Made by a program: the position numbers. 64,000 bases of DNA from an uncultured Gemmatimonadales bacterium. Its GTDB lineage: Bacteria > Gemmatimonadota > Gemmatimonadetes > Gemmatimonadales > Gemmatimonadaceae. This document shows, piece after piece, positions 24,001 through 30,000 of the stretch (the first letter of the stretch is position 1; each line of letters opens with the position of its first letter). The stretch is taken from contig CAWKNZ010000003.1 in the NCBI GenBank assembly GCA_963851265.1, forward strand, positions 96,001 to 160,000. Reading direction: 5' to 3'.

Positions 24001-27000
24001 CCGCAGCAGCTCGAGCTGGCGGTGGACCAGGCGCTCGAGTACGTACGGCTCAAGCGCGAGAACGAGGCGTTACGGCGCGAGGTGAGCGCGATCCGGAGCG
24101 AGCGGCAGATCGTCGGCGAGTCGCCGGCGATGCGCCGGCTGCTGCAGACGGTGAAGACGGCCGCGCCGACGCGCGCCACGGTGCTGCTCCAAGGGGAGAG
24201 CGGAACGGGCAAGGAGCTGTTCGCGCGCGCGGTGCACGACCAGAGCGAGCGGCGCGACCGGCCCTTCATCCAGCTCAATTGCGCGGCGCTCCCGGAGGGG
24301 CTCATCGAGAGCGCGTTGTTCGGGCACGAGAAGGGCGCGTTCACGGGGGCGATCCGGCGGGTGGAGGGCGCGTTCGAGCGCGCGCACCGCGGGACGCTGC
24401 TGCTGGACGAGGTGAGCGAGATGCGGCTCGACCTGCAGGCGAAGCTGCTGCGCGTGCTGCAGGAGCAGGAGTTCGAGCGGGTGGGCGGGACGCAGCCGGT
24501 GAAGGTGGACGTACGGATCATCGCGACGACGAACCGCGACCTCGCGTCGGAGGCGGCGGCGGGCACGTTCCGGCAGGACCTCTACTACCGGCTGAGCGTC
24601 ATCCCGCTGTCGATTCCGCCGTTGCGGGAGCGGCCCGAGGACGTGCCGCTGCTGGCGACGCGATTCGCCGTGCGGACGGCGGACGAGATGGGGAAGCGGT
24701 TCGACGGGATCGCGCCGGAGACCATGCTGGCACTGCAGCGCTACACGTGGCCGGGGAACGTGCGCGAGCTGCAGCACGTGATCGAGCGGGCGGTCATCCT
24801 GTCGCCGGAGGCGACGCTGCTGCCGCACGCGCTGGAGCCGGCGCGGTTTGGGCTGACGGGTGCGGGGATCGGTTCGGGCGGGCCGGGGGCTCGCGGCGCG
24901 GCGCTGGCCGCACTCGCGGCGTCGAACGGCGCGGCGGGGGAGGGCGGCGGCGCCGCGGACGACCCGATGCGGGTGGTGCTCCATTCGCTCGACGTGACGC
25001 GCGCCGAGGCGGTGTTGATCGAGCGCGCGCTGGAGGTCGCCAAAGGCAACCGGACGCGCGCGTCGGAGCTGCTCGGGATTTCGGTGCGGACGCTGCGGAA
25101 CAAGCTGAACGGACCGGGGCGCGAGGTGGCCTAACGCACGGGTCGCGCAGGCGCGGGCGGCCCTGTCAGGCGACCTCGTCGCCGGCGAGCGCGGTAAGGA
25201 GCATGTGCGGCGCCGTGAGCGCGGCGAGGCCGGCGAAGAGCACGCGTACCGCCGCGGGGGTGGCCGTGGCTGGTGCGGCGTGCGCGCCGCCGGCGAGGGC
25301 GAGCCAGGCGACCGCGCCTAGCACGAGCGTCGCGAGCGTGGCCGGAAGTGCGGCGCGGGCGAACCAACCCCACGCGCGGCGCGGGTGCGCGGGGTCGAGC
25401 GATGCGGCCAGGGCGAGCGCGTGGCGGGCGGAGTGGAGGAGGCAGAAGTAGACGAGGAACCCGACGAACGGCGGGAGTGTCGCGGCGACGGCGGGTACGG
25501 CGAGGCACTCGAGCGCGTCGGCGACGTGTGCGCGGCGGTTCGGGCGGCGGCGTGCGGCCGCGGCGTGGGCGAGCGCGAAGACGACACAGCCGGGCGCGAC
25601 GACGCACCAGGCGAGACGACCCGATGCGGCAGTGATGAGGTCCAGCGCGGCCACCGACGCGCCCGGTGCGACCCACGCGAAGGCCTGGCGGACAGCGACG
25701 GGGTGTGCGGCCGCGGGGACCAGGATCGGCGCCGCGCCACGCACCATCACCTCGGCCCACGCGAGGCCGCGGGGTGCGCGAGCGGCGGCGACGTCGCCGA
25801 GGCCGAAGTGGAGCGCGGACGCCGCAAGGAACGCGGCGAGCGTGATGGCGGGCGCCGACCACCAGCCGACAACGATCACCGCGCCGAGGAGGACGTAACC
25901 GGCGTGGAAGGGCGCCCACCAGTGCCGACCGAGGCGCCGGGCGAGCCAGCGCCGGCCGACGAGGGGATCGAGGGCGCCGTGCGGAACGCCGAAGACCGCG
26001 ACCGCCGCGACGAGGACGGCGACCTGCACCGCGAGCGCCGGCTGCACCGAGGCGGGGCGGAGGGTCGCCACGACAACGATCGACCAGCAGAGCGCGCCCG
26101 CGGCGACGGTGTGTCGCGCGCGCCACCTCGGGAGCCAGACCGACACGTCGGAGACGCGGGCCGCGGTCACACGGCGGCGAGGCGACACGCTTCGGCCGCG
26201 AACGGCAGCGGCGGCAGCGCCGCAATCACGCGGGCCGCGTCGGAGGGCGAGCCGACGTCCGAAAGAAAGCGGACGAGCGCGTCGGGATCTGCGGCCGCGA
26301 ACAGGCGCACGAACATGGCCGGCGCCGCCGCGGGGTCGCTCCGCAGTCGTCGCAGGAAGACGTGGTCGAGCCAGCGCGCGACGGCCCCGCGCGGGCGTGG
26401 CACGGCTGCGGGTCCGGGCGTGGTGAGCGTGTGGGCGAGCGCCGCCGCGTCGCGCTGGATGGCGAGGAAGGCGTACCCGGTGGACGGCTTGGCCATGCCG
26501 CCGGCGACGCCGATGCGGGTGACGCGCGGCGCGGGACGGCGGACGACGGGTGCGGCGTCCATGGGGATGACGCCGGCCTCGCGCGAACGCACCCCGTACG
26601 CGCCCCCCGTGAGGCGGTCGGCGTAGCGCGCGAGGGCCGCATCGAGGGCGACAGGCGCCGGCGCGCGCTCGGCGACGACGGCCACCTCGACCAGCGCGTC
26701 GTGGGCCGTGTAGGGGAGCACGTAGCCGAACGCGAATCCGTCGCCGGGCTGCTCGACCGTGAAGTCCATCAGCGTGGCAACGCCGGCGTCGAAGGCGGCG
26801 TGGGTCGTGTGCACCACGGCGCCGGCGAACGCCTGGACGAGGCGCGCGGCGCGCGGCGCGGCGCTGGCGGGCGGCGCCGCGCTCGCCGCGGCGCTCGGCC
26901 GGCTGTCGAACACACGCGCGGCGTGCAGTGCGCCCCCCGTGGCGTACACATGCACCGCGCTACCCACGTCGGCGAGCGCGTCGACGCGTTCGCCGAGGCG

Positions 27001-30000
27001 CAGTTCGACGTGGCGCGCGCGGCTGATGCGCGCGAGGGCCTCGGCGTAGAACGCGTCGGCGGGGACGTGCTGATACGCGTAGCGCGTCGAGCCGCGCTCC
27101 ACGACCGCCCCGTCGGGCGCGACGACGCGCCAGCGCGACCAGCGGTGCGTAACGGCCGCGGCGAACGGGTGCTCGTGGACGTCCCAATAGCACCACGTGC
27201 GGTCGCGGCCGAACGTCGTCCGCTCGTCGAGGACGACGACGCGACCCGCGCGTGGTCCCGCGTCGGCGAGGCGTGCGGCGAGGCTCAGCCCCGCGCACCC
27301 CGCGCCGACGATCACGACGTTGGCGTCGCGCGGCACCGCCGGTCCGTGCGGTCAGAGTGGATGGAACGCCAGGCTAGCGCACCCCCGTACCGGCGACATC
27401 GCGACGCTCACGAGCGCGCTCGCGCTCCGACCCGACGCGGCCCGAGCTCGGATTCGGCGGCAGCGAGGTGATGGGCTCGACCACCGGGCGATAGTTGGCC
27501 GAGTGCGGTTCGAGCTGCGCGCTGCCGGCGAGGGTCATGAAGCCGTAGCCGACCTTCGCGATGATGTCGAGCACGAGGAAGATCAGTGCTTCGGTCGGGG
27601 CCTCGAAGAGGCGGAACCCTTCGGGCGCGCCGAGCCAGACGAGCGGGTACAGGAGCCAGAGCACGGACAGGACGGTCGCGTTGCGCGTGAACACGGCGCC
27701 GACCGTCGGGCTGGTCTGGCTTTTGGCCTCGCGGCGGAGCGGCCCCCAGATCAGCGCGTACACAGCCAACTGGAACGCGCAGCTCACGATGTACCAGGTG
27801 ACCTTGGAGCCCTGCACGTGCGACAGCGCGGCGGCGAGGCCGGTGCCCATGATCGCGACGTCGGCGACGAGGATGCCGACGACGAGCGCGGGGCGGCGCC
27901 GCAGCTCACCGAGCGCCGTGGTGCAGAGCGCGGCGAGCAGGAGTGGCGTCGTGATCGACCAGTCGACGTAGCGGGCGAGGTAGACGTGCCGCGACTGCTC
28001 GGGGATCTCGACCCGGAGCTGGTCGAGGCCCATGAACGTGTAGAAGACGGCCGCCGTTAGGCAGACGAGGAGGTGGAAGACGTACTCCGGCTCGGAGTCG
28101 CGCGGCTTGCCGCGCGACCGCGCGATCATCGCGAACGCGCCGAGCGCGAGGACCACCGTGCCCACCCAGTAAAACTGCCGCTCACTTGCGTACGGTTCCA
28201 TATTCCCCCTCCCCTCCCTCGAACCAGTGTCGTTAGTCGACGCGGCGCGTCGATCCCGCCCGGCCCCGCGCCGGCGCGTGTTGCGTACAGGCTGGTGGCA
28301 TGCCTCACGCCAGCAGGCGCTCAACGCGCCGGCACGTGCGCGGGTTCACAACGCCTCACGGGCGGCGCTACGGCGCGAACCGCTCGCCCTGGTTGTACTC
28401 GCCGACCGCGCGGTCCTGGACGGCGCGCGCCCAGCCGGGCAGGCCGTCGCTGACCTCGTGTCCCGCGCGCCGGGCCGTGCCGCCGGCCGCGGGTGCCGGG
28501 AGGGTGCGCTCGGCGAGTCCGGCCACGTCGGCGGCCAGACCCGGCGCGAGGTCGTGGAATTTGGCGAGGAGCCACGCGCTGGCCGGCGTGATCAACTCGG
28601 CGTCGCCGTGCGCTGCGGCGTCGAGGATGCGGCGGGCCATGAGGTCGGGCGCGATGCTCGCGAACGGCGCCGAGCTGTTGGTCGCGAACCAGCGGTATTC
28701 TTCCGGCTGGTCGCCCTTGAACACGGCGTGCACCGTGCTGCCGGTGCGGATCTCGCCGGGACACACCGTGGTCACGAGTACCCCGTGCTTGGCGAGCGAG
28801 GCGCGGAGCCCTTCGGAGAGCCCGACGAGGGCGAACTTGCTCGCCGAGTAGGGAAGCAGGTGCGGCACCGACACCTTGCCGCCGATGGACGCGATGTTGA
28901 CGATGCGCCCCGAGCGGCGCGCGCGCATGCCCGGCGACACGGCCAGCACCGCGTGCAGCGCGCCGTAGAAGTTAGTCGCCAGTGCCTCGTCGAAGTCGGC
29001 GCGCGCCATCTGTTCGGAGGGGCCGACCTCGATGGTGCCGGCGTTGCTGATGAGCAGGTCGATGGGGCCGAGGCGGCGCTCGACGCCCGCGACCAGATCG
29101 TTCACGTCCTGCTCGACCGTGACGTCGCACCGCAGGGCGAGCACGTCGTCGGCGCTGCCGCCGCGGTCGGCGGCGCGCTCGACGAGTTCGGCGAGGGCGC
29201 GACTCAGGGCGACCTCGTCGCGCGCGCAGATCGCGACGCGGGTGCCGCCGTCGACGAGCTGGCGGGCGAGCTCGAGGCCCAGGCCGCGCGAGCCGCCGGT
29301 GACGAGGGCGACCTTGCTGCGGAAATCGACGCGGCGCGCGCGGCGGGTGAGCGCGCGCGCGGTCCAGTAGGCCGCACCGGCCGCGGTGAGCCAGAGGGCG
29401 GTGTTGGGCGGACGACGAGTGGCACGCATGACGTCGGGGCGGAGGTGAAGCACGCGCCCCGTGCCCATTTCGTACCAGTCCGCCGCTCAGCCCTCGAACG
29501 GCTCCATGTGCACGAGCACGCCGTCGACAGCGGGAACCTCGCGGCGGATGGCGCCCTTTACCATGCCGCCGAGCACGTGCGCCTCGTCGAGCGGCGTCTT
29601 GGGCGCGGCCTGGACGTGGATGTCGACGTGGTACACCGTGCCCGCGCGCCGCACGTTGAGCTTCTCGACGTCGAGCACACCGTCTACGGCCCGCGCGGCG
29701 CGTTCGACGGCGCCGACGACGCTGCCGTCGGGCATGCGGTCCATGAGGTCGTGGAGCGCGGGCCGGAGCAGGTGCACGCCGTTGTACGCAATGACGCCCG
29801 AGGCGAGCAACGCGGCCCAATCGTCGGCCGACGCCCACGCGGGGTGACCGTGCATGCGGCTGCCGACCACGGCCACCGCGATGCCGACGAACGCCGCGGC
29901 CGACGTGACGGCGTCGCTCAGGTGGTGGCCCGCGTCGGCCCGCACGACCGGGCTGCCGGAGTCGTCTCCGACCGCGCCGGCCCGCTGCATGAGTCGCCAC

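Follow-up and report, generated by a model that had tools for sequence, protein, structure and literature searches.

A rhodopsin, lycopene cyclase and retinal synthase cassette beside flagellar genes in a Gemmatimonadaceae bacterium

Background

Several described rhodopsins combine an Asp-Thr pair with a small non-carboxylic residue on helix C, including PspR of Pseudomonas putida (7W74), SpaR of Sphingomonas paucimobilis (8ANQ, one of the 'mirror proteorhodopsins') and the DTG rhodopsins of Pantoea. Excerpts of PMC8927995 describe His37 and Tyr213 of PspR as characteristic of DTG/DTS pumps. The DTG rhodopsin MpR of Methylobacterium populi, as cited in part of PMC10154332, was reported as a Li+/Na+ pump, and the same portion of that paper describes an MpR-like clade of 60 DTG, DTS, DTA and DTT rhodopsins in which three carboxylates, E32, E33 and D35, sit close to where helix B ends on the cytoplasmic side. 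SsGHR, the glycylhalorhodopsin of Salinarimonas soli (8XX8, motif TTG), carries Thr at the Asp85 position and is an inward anion pump (excerpts of PMC11532467). Characterised proteins at 32-37% identity to the rhodopsin analyzed here differ in function: SpaR and PspR export H+, MpR reportedly moves Li+/Na+ and SsGHR takes up anions.

Genomes that hold a rhodopsin, retinal genes and a bacteriochlorophyll cluster together have been described for Sphingomonas glacialis AAP5 and the glacier Gemmatimonadetes MAG LF-bin-339; according to the excerpted sources (PMC7701988, PMC10581226, PMC9897461), dual-phototrophy physiology was demonstrated for AAP5 only of these two.

Results and discussion

Gene content of the cassette

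The window, that is, the whole stretch of 64,000 nucleotides analyzed, contains three intact, closely spaced genes on the minus strand that form a cassette at 25166-28201. A rhodopsin of 275 aa (27374..28201, minus strand; Pfam PF01036 Bac_rhodopsin, E 9.9e-45) is followed by a CrtY-type lycopene beta-cyclase (26167..27336, minus; PF05834 Lycopene_cycl, E 4.7e-60) and a Blh/Brp beta-carotene 15,15'-dioxygenase, or retinal synthase (25166..26188, minus; PF15461 BCD/Blh, E 7.7e-51). The latter also scores 180.8 bits against NCBIfam TIGR03753, above the cut-off of 95.25. The first 22 nt of blh overlap the 3' end of crtY, and a Shine-Dalgarno-like run, GGGAGGGGAGGGGG, precedes the rhodopsin ATG (28201). 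The operon that the genome-wide survey's note had described, a rhodopsin with its own lycopene cyclase and Blh, is real and intact. The genome encodes one rhodopsin copy. The cassette crtY is its sole clear lycopene cyclase (203.7 bits in an own-genome search, the next match at 23 bits), and SQS_PSY-family synthases are encoded away from the cassette. Of 80 relatives from other taxa, 50 have blh next to the rhodopsin gene and 22 have crtY there.

Given this gene content, CrtY would convert lycopene already made by the cell into beta-carotene, Blh would turn beta-carotene into all-trans retinal, and the retinal would be bound at Lys216 of the rhodopsin. Overall, we explain the locus best, with moderate confidence, as a self-contained retinal photosystem built on an outward proton pump, with a position next to flagellar genes that is historical.

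Key residues and fold of the rhodopsin

We take bacteriorhodopsin numbering as the reference for residue equivalents. Read on the alignment, the key residues are R77, D80, T84, A91, D212 and the Schiff-base lysine K216, accompanied by H43, Y219 and E194/E204. This bears out the DTA motif (Asp80/Thr84/Ala91) and the Lys216 and Asp212 equivalents proposed earlier, as well as the absence of a carboxylic proton donor, since Ala occupies position 91. All 92 aligned sequences keep R77, D80, T84, D212, K216, W81, W182, Y185 and P186. Both E194 and E204 are retained in the lineage of this rhodopsin, and we take them to be the counterpart of the proton-release pair of bacteriorhodopsin. The AF2 model has seven transmembrane helices at a pLDDT of 91.4, and its best Foldseek matches are all rhodopsins (8xx8, 8anq, 6kfq, 7w74 and bacteriorhodopsin), the nearest structures being SsGHR, SpaR, RxR, PspR and bacteriorhodopsin.

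Because both counter-ion aspartates, Arg77, His43 and Tyr219 are kept, outward pumping is the most plausible function predicted from sequence. In light, the Schiff-base proton would pass to Asp80 and then, most likely, leave on the extracellular side. As a carboxylic donor is absent, the Schiff base would regain its proton straight from the cytoplasm, by way of a water-filled cavity that Ala91, His43 and Tyr219 line. The net effect would be outward proton pumping at a rate dependent on cytoplasmic pH.

Two features of the sequence count against this reading. The Gly that holds the PspR cavity open is smaller than Ala, and this rhodopsin has Glu39/Tyr40 where most clade mates have His39 and six of the 13 have His40.

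Phylogenetic position and alternative functions

The earlier motif tally over 58 relatives (DTG 30, DTA 22, DTS 2, DTT 2, DTD 2) was reproduced exactly, and so was the identity gap, with 12 relatives at 65% or more and the next at 46% or less. On a tree of 92 rows, the rhodopsin falls into a 13-member clade (support 100) whose sister group (support 96) comprises 73 rows, among them sequences of Pantoea (Harris-type DTG), Methylobacterium, Acidobacteriaceae and Acetobacteraceae. It is thus a deep branch of the donor-less DTG/DTS group, so far known only from Gemmatimonadaceae. Since the clade belongs to neither the Pantoea-type nor the Methylobacterium-type group, function is not simply transferable.

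At position 91, Gly, Ala and Ser alternate within the clade, with at least four changes among its 13 members and 15 on the whole 92-row tree. We considered DTA as a separate rhodopsin type and rejected it on account of these repeated changes.

A light-driven pump of the MpR type, exporting alkali cations (Li+/Na+) and not protons, would fit D35, E37 and E39, which lie in the same stretch as the MpR carboxylates, and the setting of the second rhodopsin copy in the congener G125, where the neighbouring genes encode an NhaA-type Na+/H+ antiporter, an MscS channel and two CLC channels. However, the clade branches outside the Methylobacterium group, its carboxylates read D-S-E-P-E/H as against E-E-x-D in the Methylobacterium rows, and the bacteriorhodopsin-like E194/E204 pair suits proton release, so that alkali-cation export appears unlikely. 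Inward proton pumping of the xenorhodopsin type is extremely improbable. A DTA motif is listed for two xenorhodopsins of Bacillus (part of PMC7979833) and BcXeR structures occur among the Foldseek matches, but Asp212 is kept here where ASR has Pro in the alignment, the sequence groups with DTG/DTS rhodopsins on the tree, and His43/Tyr219 is the pair of DTG/DTS pumps.

Residues ~229-275 form a clade-specific cytoplasmic tail of about 45 residues, whose motif LEPHxAxYRPVVEPI... is kept in most clade members; two of them (P0009 and P0011) end soon after it. A plain pump offers no account of this conserved motif. The tail might instead belong to a photosensor that signals to motility, chemotaxis or gene expression without conserving energy. 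The che cluster lies 9-17 kb from the rhodopsin gene and a response-regulator gene adjoins the cassette; sensory rhodopsins, too, typically lack a proton donor. Nevertheless, none of the five rhodopsin copies of the genus has a transducer, MCP or ASRT-like gene beside it, the tail is truncated in P0009 and P0011, both counter-ions are kept (ASR has Pro at the D212 position) and the clade groups with pumps, which makes a sensory role quite unlikely.

Flagellar neighbourhood

The survey's note had placed the rhodopsin in the middle of the flagellar/chemotaxis region. The flanks agree with this: on one side lie CheB/R/A/Y, FliS, FliD, flagellin, FliW and FlgL, and on the other FlgC, FliE, FliF, FliG and further genes up to FlhB, FlhA and a FliA-like sigma factor. 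The late block (FliS-FliD-flagellin-FliW-FlgL) ends with the FlgL-like hook-associated protein (22588..23541, minus; Pfam Flagellin_N/C), and the early block (FlgC, FliE, FliF, FliG and onward) begins with the FlgC-like rod protein (35425..36096, plus; Flg_bb_rod, Flg_bbr_C). The cassette itself, however, is part of no flagellar operon. Next to FlgL stands a sigma-54-dependent response regulator (23686..25134, plus; receiver, AAA+ and Fis HTH domains in Pfam; generic NtrC/AtoC/FlbD-like in NCBIfam), whose gene is convergent with blh. From this regulator to flgB/flgC extends a 10-kb island of non-flagellar cargo that contains the cassette. Its other members are an SDR oxidoreductase directly upstream of the rhodopsin (28368..29468, minus; adh_short, E 4.6e-52), a CDF cation-efflux transporter (29487..30401, minus; Pfam; TIGR01297, 202.5 bits) and two M13 metallopeptidases (30422..35037, as 30422-32629 and 32728-35037, minus; Peptidase_M13_N, M13).

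As anchors for the slot, FlgL orthologues served in 12 of 41 genomes and FlgC-like proteins in 11. The regulator is a conserved FlgL neighbour across genera (G015, G411, G012, G005, G010 and G195). In G015 and G411, FlgL, the regulator and FlgC follow one another with no intervening cargo; elsewhere the slot holds a Ser/Thr kinase (G012), an acyl-CoA dehydrogenase with an S9 peptidase and an amidohydrolase (G010), or unknown ORFs (G005). The congener G195 has SDR-CDF-M13-M13 in the slot and lacks the cassette. Its contig is colinear with window positions 22001-25137 (83.7%) and 28370-36263 (85.7%), and by blastn 118 bp replace a segment of 3232 bp that comprises the cassette and its upstream region (25138..28369, unstranded). 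No boundary repeats were found at the ends of this segment. In both other congeners with the cassette, G125 and G073, the rhodopsin lies between the FlgL and FlgC sides and a second copy lies elsewhere, as had been noted before; the junction position is retained in three species, whose proteins are 74-90% identical. We read this retention as inheritance, selection being also possible.

A pump that specifically serves the proton-driven flagellar motor, or is regulated together with it, would explain the position in the flagellar region. The retained FlgL-side/FlgC-side position, the adjoining sigma-54 regulator gene and the knowledge that rhodopsin-generated PMF can drive E. coli flagellar motors (e.g. 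PMC12994061, in part) are consistent with such a pump. The 166-nt upstream region (28202..28367, minus), which presumably includes the promoter of the rhodopsin gene, also contains a weak sigma-54-like TGGCGTGAGGCATGC at 28298-28312 (TGGC-N8-TGC), ~100 nt before the rhodopsin start. On the other hand, this pattern is not conserved upstream of the G125 and G073 copies, and patterns of this kind are no commoner than expected (38 observed, 52 expected, two mismatches allowed). None of the 80 relatives in other taxa has a flagellar/chemotaxis homologue within ~8 kb, G195 retains the flagellar site without the cassette, the slot is shared with unrelated cargo, G125 and G073 have their second copies elsewhere, and adjacency is unneeded because PMF is a shared pool. 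We therefore regard a motor-dedicated pump as very improbable. The flagellar adjacency is confined to a single genus and looks historical, not functional; the gene-order link to motility proposed earlier is not supported.

The stretch from the flagellar sigma-54 regulator to flgB is a slot in which family members gather unrelated genes. Under the favoured reading, the cassette would have been passed down in the genus and undergone duplication, and at least one species would have lost it. As a general outward proton pump, the rhodopsin would add to the general proton-motive force beside respiration, and beside the bacteriochlorophyll reaction centre if the bch cluster is functional.

Co-occurrence with bacteriochlorophyll genes

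The same genome, that of a soil bacterium, encodes pufL and pufM on contig C10, where NCBIfam names at 126-167 kb comprise hemF, hemA, bchP, G, F, N, B, H, L and acsF; puhA, puhC, tspO and pufC, M, L, A, B; and bchO, Z, Y, X, I, D, puhE and ppsR. The genome thus has a photosynthesis gene cluster, as the survey had reported, but bchB is frameshifted and out of frame in this assembly; consequently, two light systems may not hold for this strain. Of the other light sensors named there, a bacteriophytochrome is represented by one PHY-domain protein, whereas none of the three PYP-like matches reaches the curated cut-off. All 12 contigs are alike in composition (GC 0.726-0.744, tetranucleotide r of at least 0.989), and in G125 the rhodopsin and pufLM occur on one 2.99-Mb contig.

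Across the five genomes of the genus, the rhodopsin occurs in three and pufLM in four. Contrary to the earlier suggestion, dual phototrophy is accordingly no fixed trait of the genus, G195 having 118 bp instead of the cassette. We also rejected the idea that it is special to this genus, since five genera of the family include genomes with both rhodopsin and pufLM, 13 of the 401 sampled in all. Outside the genus, seven of the nine other Gemmatimonadaceae rhodopsin sequences examined have the Glu-donor DTE motif.

Comparison with known systems

Bacteriorhodopsin of Halobacterium salinarum has 30-31% identity and the same fold (AF2 model); equivalents of R82, D85, T89, D212, K216, W86, W182, Y185 and P186 are present, as is Glu at 194 and 204. 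Unlike bacteriorhodopsin, the protein has Ala for Asp96, a bacterial host and retinal genes in an operon with the opsin.

SsGHR is the best match among solved structures both in sequence (125 bits) and in structure (36-37% identity). Both proteins have a small donor-position residue, which in SsGHR faces a cytoplasmic cavity (excerpts of PMC11532467). Unlike SsGHR with its Thr, the present rhodopsin keeps Asp80, so that it would be expected to pump cations or protons.

With PspR, SpaR and the Pantoea DTG rhodopsins it shares Asp-Thr and the small helix C residue, and with PspR also His43 (PspR His37) and Tyr219 (PspR Tyr213; PMC8927995, in part). The bacteriorhodopsin-like fold (TM-scores to target of 0.91-0.92 for the AF2 model in Foldseek) is common to the DTG/DTS pumps, which the excerpted sources place in soil and plant-surface hosts (PMC8927995, PMC10154332). 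Many relatives also have blh next to the rhodopsin gene. In contrast, identity to PspR and SpaR is only 32-33%, and the clade branches outside the Pantoea, Novosphingobium and Sphingomonas group. The protein has Ala rather than Gly/Ser, Cys47 for the family's Pro, Met118 for Ile and Trp189 for Phe/Leu, Glu39/Tyr40 instead of the SpaR-type His-His, and a conserved C-terminal tail of 45 residues. Its host belongs to the Gemmatimonadaceae and has pufLM.

This host resembles AAP5, with its xanthorhodopsin and photosynthesis gene cluster, and LF-bin-339 in having a rhodopsin, retinal genes and a bacteriochlorophyll cluster in one genome. As far as the excerpts of PMC7701988, PMC10581226 and PMC9897461 describe them, the rhodopsins of those two are of xanthorhodopsin or proteorhodopsin type, whereas the one described here belongs to the donor-less bacteriorhodopsin-like group.

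Organization of the retinal cassette and its neighborhood

The net result of this analysis is a new, deep-branching donor-less rhodopsin that belongs to a retinal cassette and occurs in a soil member of the Gemmatimonadaceae bearing bacteriochlorophyll genes. The cassette includes three intact, tightly packed genes on the minus strand (window positions 25166-28201): the rhodopsin gene (27374-28201; 275 aa; Pfam PF01036, E 9.9e-45, 153.2 bits against a cut-off of 24.6), the lycopene cyclase gene crtY (26167-27336; Pfam E 4.7e-60), and the gene for a Blh/Brp beta-carotene dioxygenase (25166-26188; Pfam E 7.7e-51, also above the NCBIfam cut-off), the start of which overlaps the cyclase stop. 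A GGGAGGGGAGGGGG run, as read in the sequence, precedes the rhodopsin ATG. In the NCBIfam search, the rhodopsin was matched by no model at E <= 1e-10. The search of the source genome identified the cassette crtY as its only clear lycopene cyclase; the supply of beta-carotene, and hence of retinal, depends on the cassette itself. Synthases of the SQS_PSY family are encoded elsewhere in this genome. The GC content of the cassette region (25000-27500) is 0.76-0.77 versus 0.70-0.73 in the flanks, with a strongly positive AT skew on the plus strand; this bias may reflect either Ala-rich membrane proteins or a foreign origin.

The Pfam matches and the gene map confirm that the cassette lies between two flagellar blocks, as the genome-wide survey's note had reported. 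On one side, minus-strand genes encode CheB, CheR, CheA and a CheY-like protein (8-16.5 kb), followed by FliS, FliD, flagellin, FliW and FlgL (17.9-23.5 kb) and by a plus-strand gene for a sigma-54 response regulator (23686-25134) that is convergent with the cassette. Beyond the cassette, an SDR, a CDF transporter and two M13 peptidases are encoded on the minus strand up to position 35037, and the plus strand from 35.4 kb onward carries the genes for FlgC, FliE, an HNH protein, FliF, FliG and, further along, FliM, FliN, FliP, FlhB, FlhA and a FliA-like sigma factor. The cassette is counted within the seven non-flagellar genes of this interval, is part of no flagellar operon and occupies its own strand segment.

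Several other genes of this region were recorded. An HNH-endonuclease-domain ORF (36907-37716) is located between fliE and fliF, and the same gene is found at the same place in the congener G125 (locus L011:856-1722). A Peptidase_S41-domain ORF between fliP and flhB and a gene for an AMP-binding (adenylate-forming) enzyme after flhA were annotated at 52225-53799 and 58334-59716; the latter gene stands where further flagellar genes would be expected. The rhodopsin SpaR is described as zinc-sensitive (PMC10154332), and a link of this property to the neighboring CDF transporter was set down as coincidence.

Comparative analysis of the flagellar gene order

FlgL and FlgC were searched for in 41 genomes (the source genome and 40 relatives), and the stretch between them was annotated in six genomes besides the three rhodopsin-bearing ones. 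In two relatives (G015 and G411), FlgL is followed by the sigma-54 regulator, (FlgB) FlgC and FliE with nothing else between. A Ser/Thr kinase gene follows the regulator in G012, whereas the slot of G010 holds genes for an acyl-CoA dehydrogenase, an S9 peptidase, an unknown protein and an amidohydrolase, and that of G005 contains unknown ORFs. Given these contents across genera, the regulator is the conserved gene of the flagellar cluster, and the space after it a slot gathering unrelated cargo.

Within the genus, the slot varies as well. G125 combines Blh-CrtY-rhodopsin with a Crp-family regulator, SDR, CDF, an M23 peptidase and two M13 peptidases, and G073 has rhodopsin-Blh without crtY next to SDR, CDF and one M13 peptidase. 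In a further congener, G195, SDR, CDF and two M13 peptidases are present and the cassette is absent. The G195 contig is colinear with window positions 22001-25137 (83.7% identity) and 28370-36263 (85.7%), and 118 bp replaces the 3232 bp of the window in between (25138-28369). A family search of the G195 genome, which is only 85% complete, likewise detected no rhodopsin. The reading of the rhodopsin as a fixed trait of the genus is not supported. The cassette boundaries show no terminal repeats, only GC-rich chance matches. Taking into account the identities of the flanks to the window, which amount to 84-86% in G195, 81-87% in G125 and 79-82% in G073, loss of the cassette in the G195 line is the simplest history, as judged from these values.

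We also took 19 of the window's flagellar and chemotaxis proteins as tblastn queries against 80 loci of relatives from outside the family, including Acetobacteraceae, Acidobacteriaceae, Methylobacterium, Pantoea, Sphingomonas, Caulobacteraceae and Microlunatus (E <= 1e-5; flanks of up to 8 kb, shorter in some loci). Flagellar or chemotaxis homologues near the rhodopsin were found in none of the 80 loci within these flanks. Blh adjoins the rhodopsin in 50 of them and CrtY in 22. The conserved unit is thus the retinal cassette and not its flagellar context. The cassette is mobile-looking but vertically inherited. The SDR was rejected as a cassette member, since the homologues within 8 kb in 12 of the 80 distant loci show generic SDR similarity and it is kept in G195 without the cassette. 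Together, the distant loci, the empty site of G195 and the variable cargo slot leave the proposed gene-order link between rhodopsin and motility without support. They also serve as a warning on gene order in general: a conserved and suggestive neighborhood proved to be a slot for cargo, for which the empty site is a natural control.

Proposed flagellar coupling and promoter patterns

Any proton pump feeds the pool that drives the flagellar motor, as is known for proteorhodopsin in E. coli. We found no sign of a dedicated link between the rhodopsin and the flagellum, and the location of the gene in a strand segment of its own, with non-flagellar genes on both sides, likewise speaks against the idea that it is wired into motility. 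A weak sigma-54-like site (TGGC-N8-TGC) occurs at 28298-28312, about 100 nt upstream of the rhodopsin gene, and is not conserved in G125 and G073. The same pattern occurs 21 times in the window versus 11.4 expected, mostly inside genes, while TGGCAC-N5-TTGC with up to two mismatches occurs 38 times versus 52.3 expected. A sigma-54 promoter was dropped as evidence because the site is not conserved in the congeners and such patterns are uninformative in DNA of 72% GC. Possible sigma-28 promoters upstream of the rhodopsin gene were judged by eye only. A sigma-70 scan of 24800-29800, uninformative in itself, gave no promoter-like site, and a terminator scan of the same interval gave a single terminator-like site, which falls within the rhodopsin gene but on the other strand. 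No RNA run is listed among the public runs for the stretch; the sole entry is a DNA run from a soil metagenome, sharing a 0.28 fraction of words.

Rhodopsin copies within the genus

The copies fall into two paralogue lineages. The first includes the window copy, the copy at the same flagellar junction of G125 and the database relatives P0002, P0003 and P0009, all of which keep Glu194 and Glu204, which we take to be equivalent to the proton-release pair of bacteriorhodopsin. Both G073 copies, the second G125 copy and others form the second lineage, in which Ser or Thr at position 194 and Ala at 204 predominate. The second G125 copy belongs to a complete second cassette (rhodopsin-crtY-blh) in locus L014 (G125:C5:11000-30999). 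A divergent gene for a CLC chloride channel accompanies this cassette, and a second CLC channel, an MscS channel, a MarR regulator and an NhaA Na+/H+ antiporter are encoded nearby; these surroundings are an ion-homeostasis neighborhood. The two rhodopsin genes of G073 (loci L012 and L013) are nearly identical. Its junction copy has blh and has lost crtY, while its second copy has crtY with no blh detected beside it, and the two loci may complement each other. A Crp/FNR-family regulator gene in G125 (L011:10931-11700) lies between SDR and rhodopsin, divergent from the latter, and is absent from that place in the window.

Co-occurrence of rhodopsin and reaction center genes

The source genome assembly (4.6 Mb, 12 contigs, 94% complete) contains one rhodopsin gene, and its pufL and pufM genes are located on contig C10. 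A photosynthesis gene cluster had been claimed for the same genome, and NCBIfam models indeed recover a bch/puf/puh set at C10:126-167 kb, comprising hemF, hemA, bchP, bchG, ppsR, bchF, bchN, bchB, bchH, bchL, acsF, puhA, puhC, tspO, pufC, pufM, pufL, pufA, pufB, bchO, bchZ, bchY, bchX, bchI, bchD and puhE. All contigs are uniform in composition (GC 0.726-0.744; tetranucleotide r >= 0.989). Moreover, rhodopsin and pufLM of G125 are 243 kb apart on one 2.99-Mb contig, and their co-occurrence is therefore not a binning artefact. With both gene sets in one organism, the bacterium is a dual phototroph by gene content, with both systems putative in function.

Two genes of the cluster are discontinuous in this assembly. 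The puhA gene (C10:147866-148813; L102:1867-2814) is stopped by an in-frame TAA and restarts at an ATG nine codons further on, which yields a membrane and a cytoplasmic piece. This split is kept in G125 and G073 and is thus not damage; it is the puhA1/puhA2 (Ht/Hc) arrangement published for Gemmatimonas phototrophica (PMC8849296). In the source assembly only, BchB changes frame for its last ~60 residues (C10 ~138.9-139.1 kb; L101:12837-13336), with a frame of 144 aa versus one long frame each in G125 (568 aa) and G073 (625 aa). The break is either an assembly error or a true frameshift, in which case it would prevent the synthesis of bacteriochlorophyll; three read runs had no usable cover. 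Among the light sensors listed by the survey, the bacteriophytochrome stands insofar as a PHY-domain protein is encoded, whereas the three PYP-like matches all score below the curated cut-off.

Altogether, Bac_rhodopsin was detected in 16 and Photo_RC in 64 of the 401 sampled Gemmatimonadaceae genomes (the source genome included), with both in 13 and rhodopsin alone in three. The 13 genomes, namely G000 (the source genome), G073, G125, G010, G018, G063, G171, G300, G321, G335, G358, G382 and G387, represent five genera, and dual phototrophy is accordingly not special to one genus. Rhodopsin is found in 13 of the 64 pufLM genomes versus three of the 337 others, and pufLM in 13 of the 16 rhodopsin-bearing genomes versus 51 of the 385 without rhodopsin; as these are kin genomes and many are fragmented MAGs, the values are given as counts and not as a statistical test. 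They hint that the rhodopsins of this family reside mostly in genomes already holding reaction centers. Of the 13 rhodopsin-bearing genomes that belong to other genera, eight yielded nine rhodopsin sequences that were read: seven have the DTE motif, one has the sodium-pump-like motif NDQ (G335), and one is DTA-like, with its match split over two frames (G063). Among the sampled genera, only that of the source genome uses a donor-less, bacteriorhodopsin (BR)-like rhodopsin. One or two glacier MAGs of Gemmatimonadota that combine rhodopsin with bacteriochlorophyll genes have been published (PMC7701988, PMC7844134, PMC10581226); a rhodopsin of the DTG/DTA type in this phylum was not found in the open-access literature, supplements aside.

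Phylogeny and lability of the DTA motif

The phylogenetic tree includes 92 sequences (quick IQ-TREE, LG+G4, SH-aLRT only, one truncated row dropped) and was rooted on two cyanobacterial DTE proteins; its sampling is that of the relatives, without reference sequences of MpR, SpaR, PspR, GHRs, CyR-II and ASR. The 13 Gemmatimonadaceae-type sequences form one clade with a support of 100 and a long stem of 1.05. Its sister (support 96) is a 73-sequence group that holds Pantoea/Novosphingobium, Methylobacterium (E-E-x-D, MpR-like), Acidobacteriaceae (DTS) and Acetobacteraceae (DTT, DTP, DTA and DTS). PMC10154332 equates the Pantoea/Novosphingobium sequences with the DTG pumps that Harris et al. described. 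Placement of the clade inside a SpaR-like group was rejected because in this quick tree, with its stem of that length, it is sister to the whole group, Pantoea/Novosphingobium included. Within the donor-less rhodopsins, the protein represents a new, deep branch.

The motif tally over 58 database relatives was reproduced exactly (DTG 30, DTA 22, DTS, DTT and DTD two each), and so was the identity gap, with 12 relatives at >=65% and the next at <=46%. In the 13 clade members, position 91 is Gly in six, Ala in six and Ser in one, and it changes at least four times within the clade and 15 times across the whole tree. Since Gly, Ala and Ser alternate at this labile position, DTA is best regarded as a minor variant of DTG/DTS and not as a type of its own. 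No paper treating DTA-motif rhodopsins of this clade was found in the open-access literature.

Predicted fold, C-terminal tail and proposed pump mechanism

By its profile score, modelled helices and pocket residues, the protein is a type-1 microbial rhodopsin with predicted retinal binding and photoactivity. The alignment of the 58 relatives shows R77, D80, T84, A91, D212 and K216 in the protein, and the Schiff-base Lys K216 and the retinal-pocket residues W81, W182, Y185 and P186 are invariant. The AlphaFold2 model, built on the relatives' alignment (pLDDT 91.4), has seven helices (5-29, 34-58, 75-97, 104-126, 130-160, 165-191 and 201-228) and a B-C hairpin. SsGHR (8XX8), SpaR (8ANQ), RxR (6KFQ), PspR (7W74) and bacteriorhodopsins take the top Foldseek ranks, in agreement with the PDB sequence search. 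Membership in the xenorhodopsin/ASR group was rejected, the protein having D212 versus Pro in the ASR alignment column. Cys47, Met118 and Trp189 are clade-specific substitutions relative to the other groups.

The cytoplasmic tail (residues 229-275; window 27374-27517) reads LEPHxAxYRPVVEPIxSLPP followed by a charged ERERAxER helix, and is modelled at low confidence with one helix at 259-271. It is conserved among clade members of only about 74% identity, truncated in P0009 and P0011, and absent from every other aligned rhodopsin group. A plain pump would not account for this conserved tail, which is among the points in favor of a sensory rhodopsin; such a role is less likely, since no transducer gene (Htr/MCP-like or ASRT-like) is found beside any of the five genus copies, their loci share only crtY and/or blh, no MCP signal domain occurs among the scanned ORFs of the window, and Asp212 is retained in place of the Pro of ASR. 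We consider it very improbable that this Gemmatimonadaceae-specific branch is something other than a plain pump, such that the tail (LEPHxAxYRPVVEPI..., then the charged helix) docks a partner, the cassette has stayed beside the flagellar sigma-54 regulator owing to co-expression, so that green-light-driven ion-motive force or a light signal would reach swimming cells in particular of this bacteriochlorophyll phototroph, and the paralogue lineages with and without Glu194/Glu204 serve different conditions.

Judging from its residues and by analogy, the protein would best be read as an outward donor-less proton pump. Asp80 would act as the proton acceptor, release would proceed via the Glu194/Glu204 region, and reprotonation would occur directly from the cytoplasm through the Ala91/His43/Tyr219 cavity. 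Such a pump would vary in activity with the pH of the cytoplasm, a dependence that has been shown for PspR (PMC8927995). The protein represents a deep, uncharacterised branch for which near-complete assemblies exist. If a member is culturable, it could show how a cell divides light between its reaction center and a retinal pump that depends on pH, and which roles are played by the small residue at the donor site, by the Glu194/204 pair and by the tail.

Characterised rhodopsins at a similar distance from this protein differ in transport: PspR and SpaR pump protons outward, SsGHR, which is without the Asp, pumps anions inward (PMC11532467), and MpR is a reported Li+/Na+ pump (cited in PMC10154332). 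The MpR type has E32, E33 and D35 (MpR numbering) where our protein has D35-S-E37-P-E39; the Methylobacterium rows show E-E-x-D, and the protein lies outside the Methylobacterium group on the tree, which includes no MpR reference. With the PspR/SpaR type it shares Asp and Thr at BR 85/89, a small non-carboxylic residue at BR 96, H43 and Y219. A helix-B His (PspR His37) and a Tyr three residues past the Lys (PspR Tyr213) are described as characteristic of DTG/DTS pumps (PMC8927995), and H43 and Y219 are kept in all 13 clade members as well as in the aligned sequences from Pantoea, Methylobacterium, Acidobacteriaceae and Acetobacteraceae. In contrast to the PspR/SpaR type, our protein branches outside the SpaR-like clade and has no second helix-B His (PspR His33; SpaR His32/His33), with E39/Y40 instead, while H39 is found in 10 of the 13 clade members.
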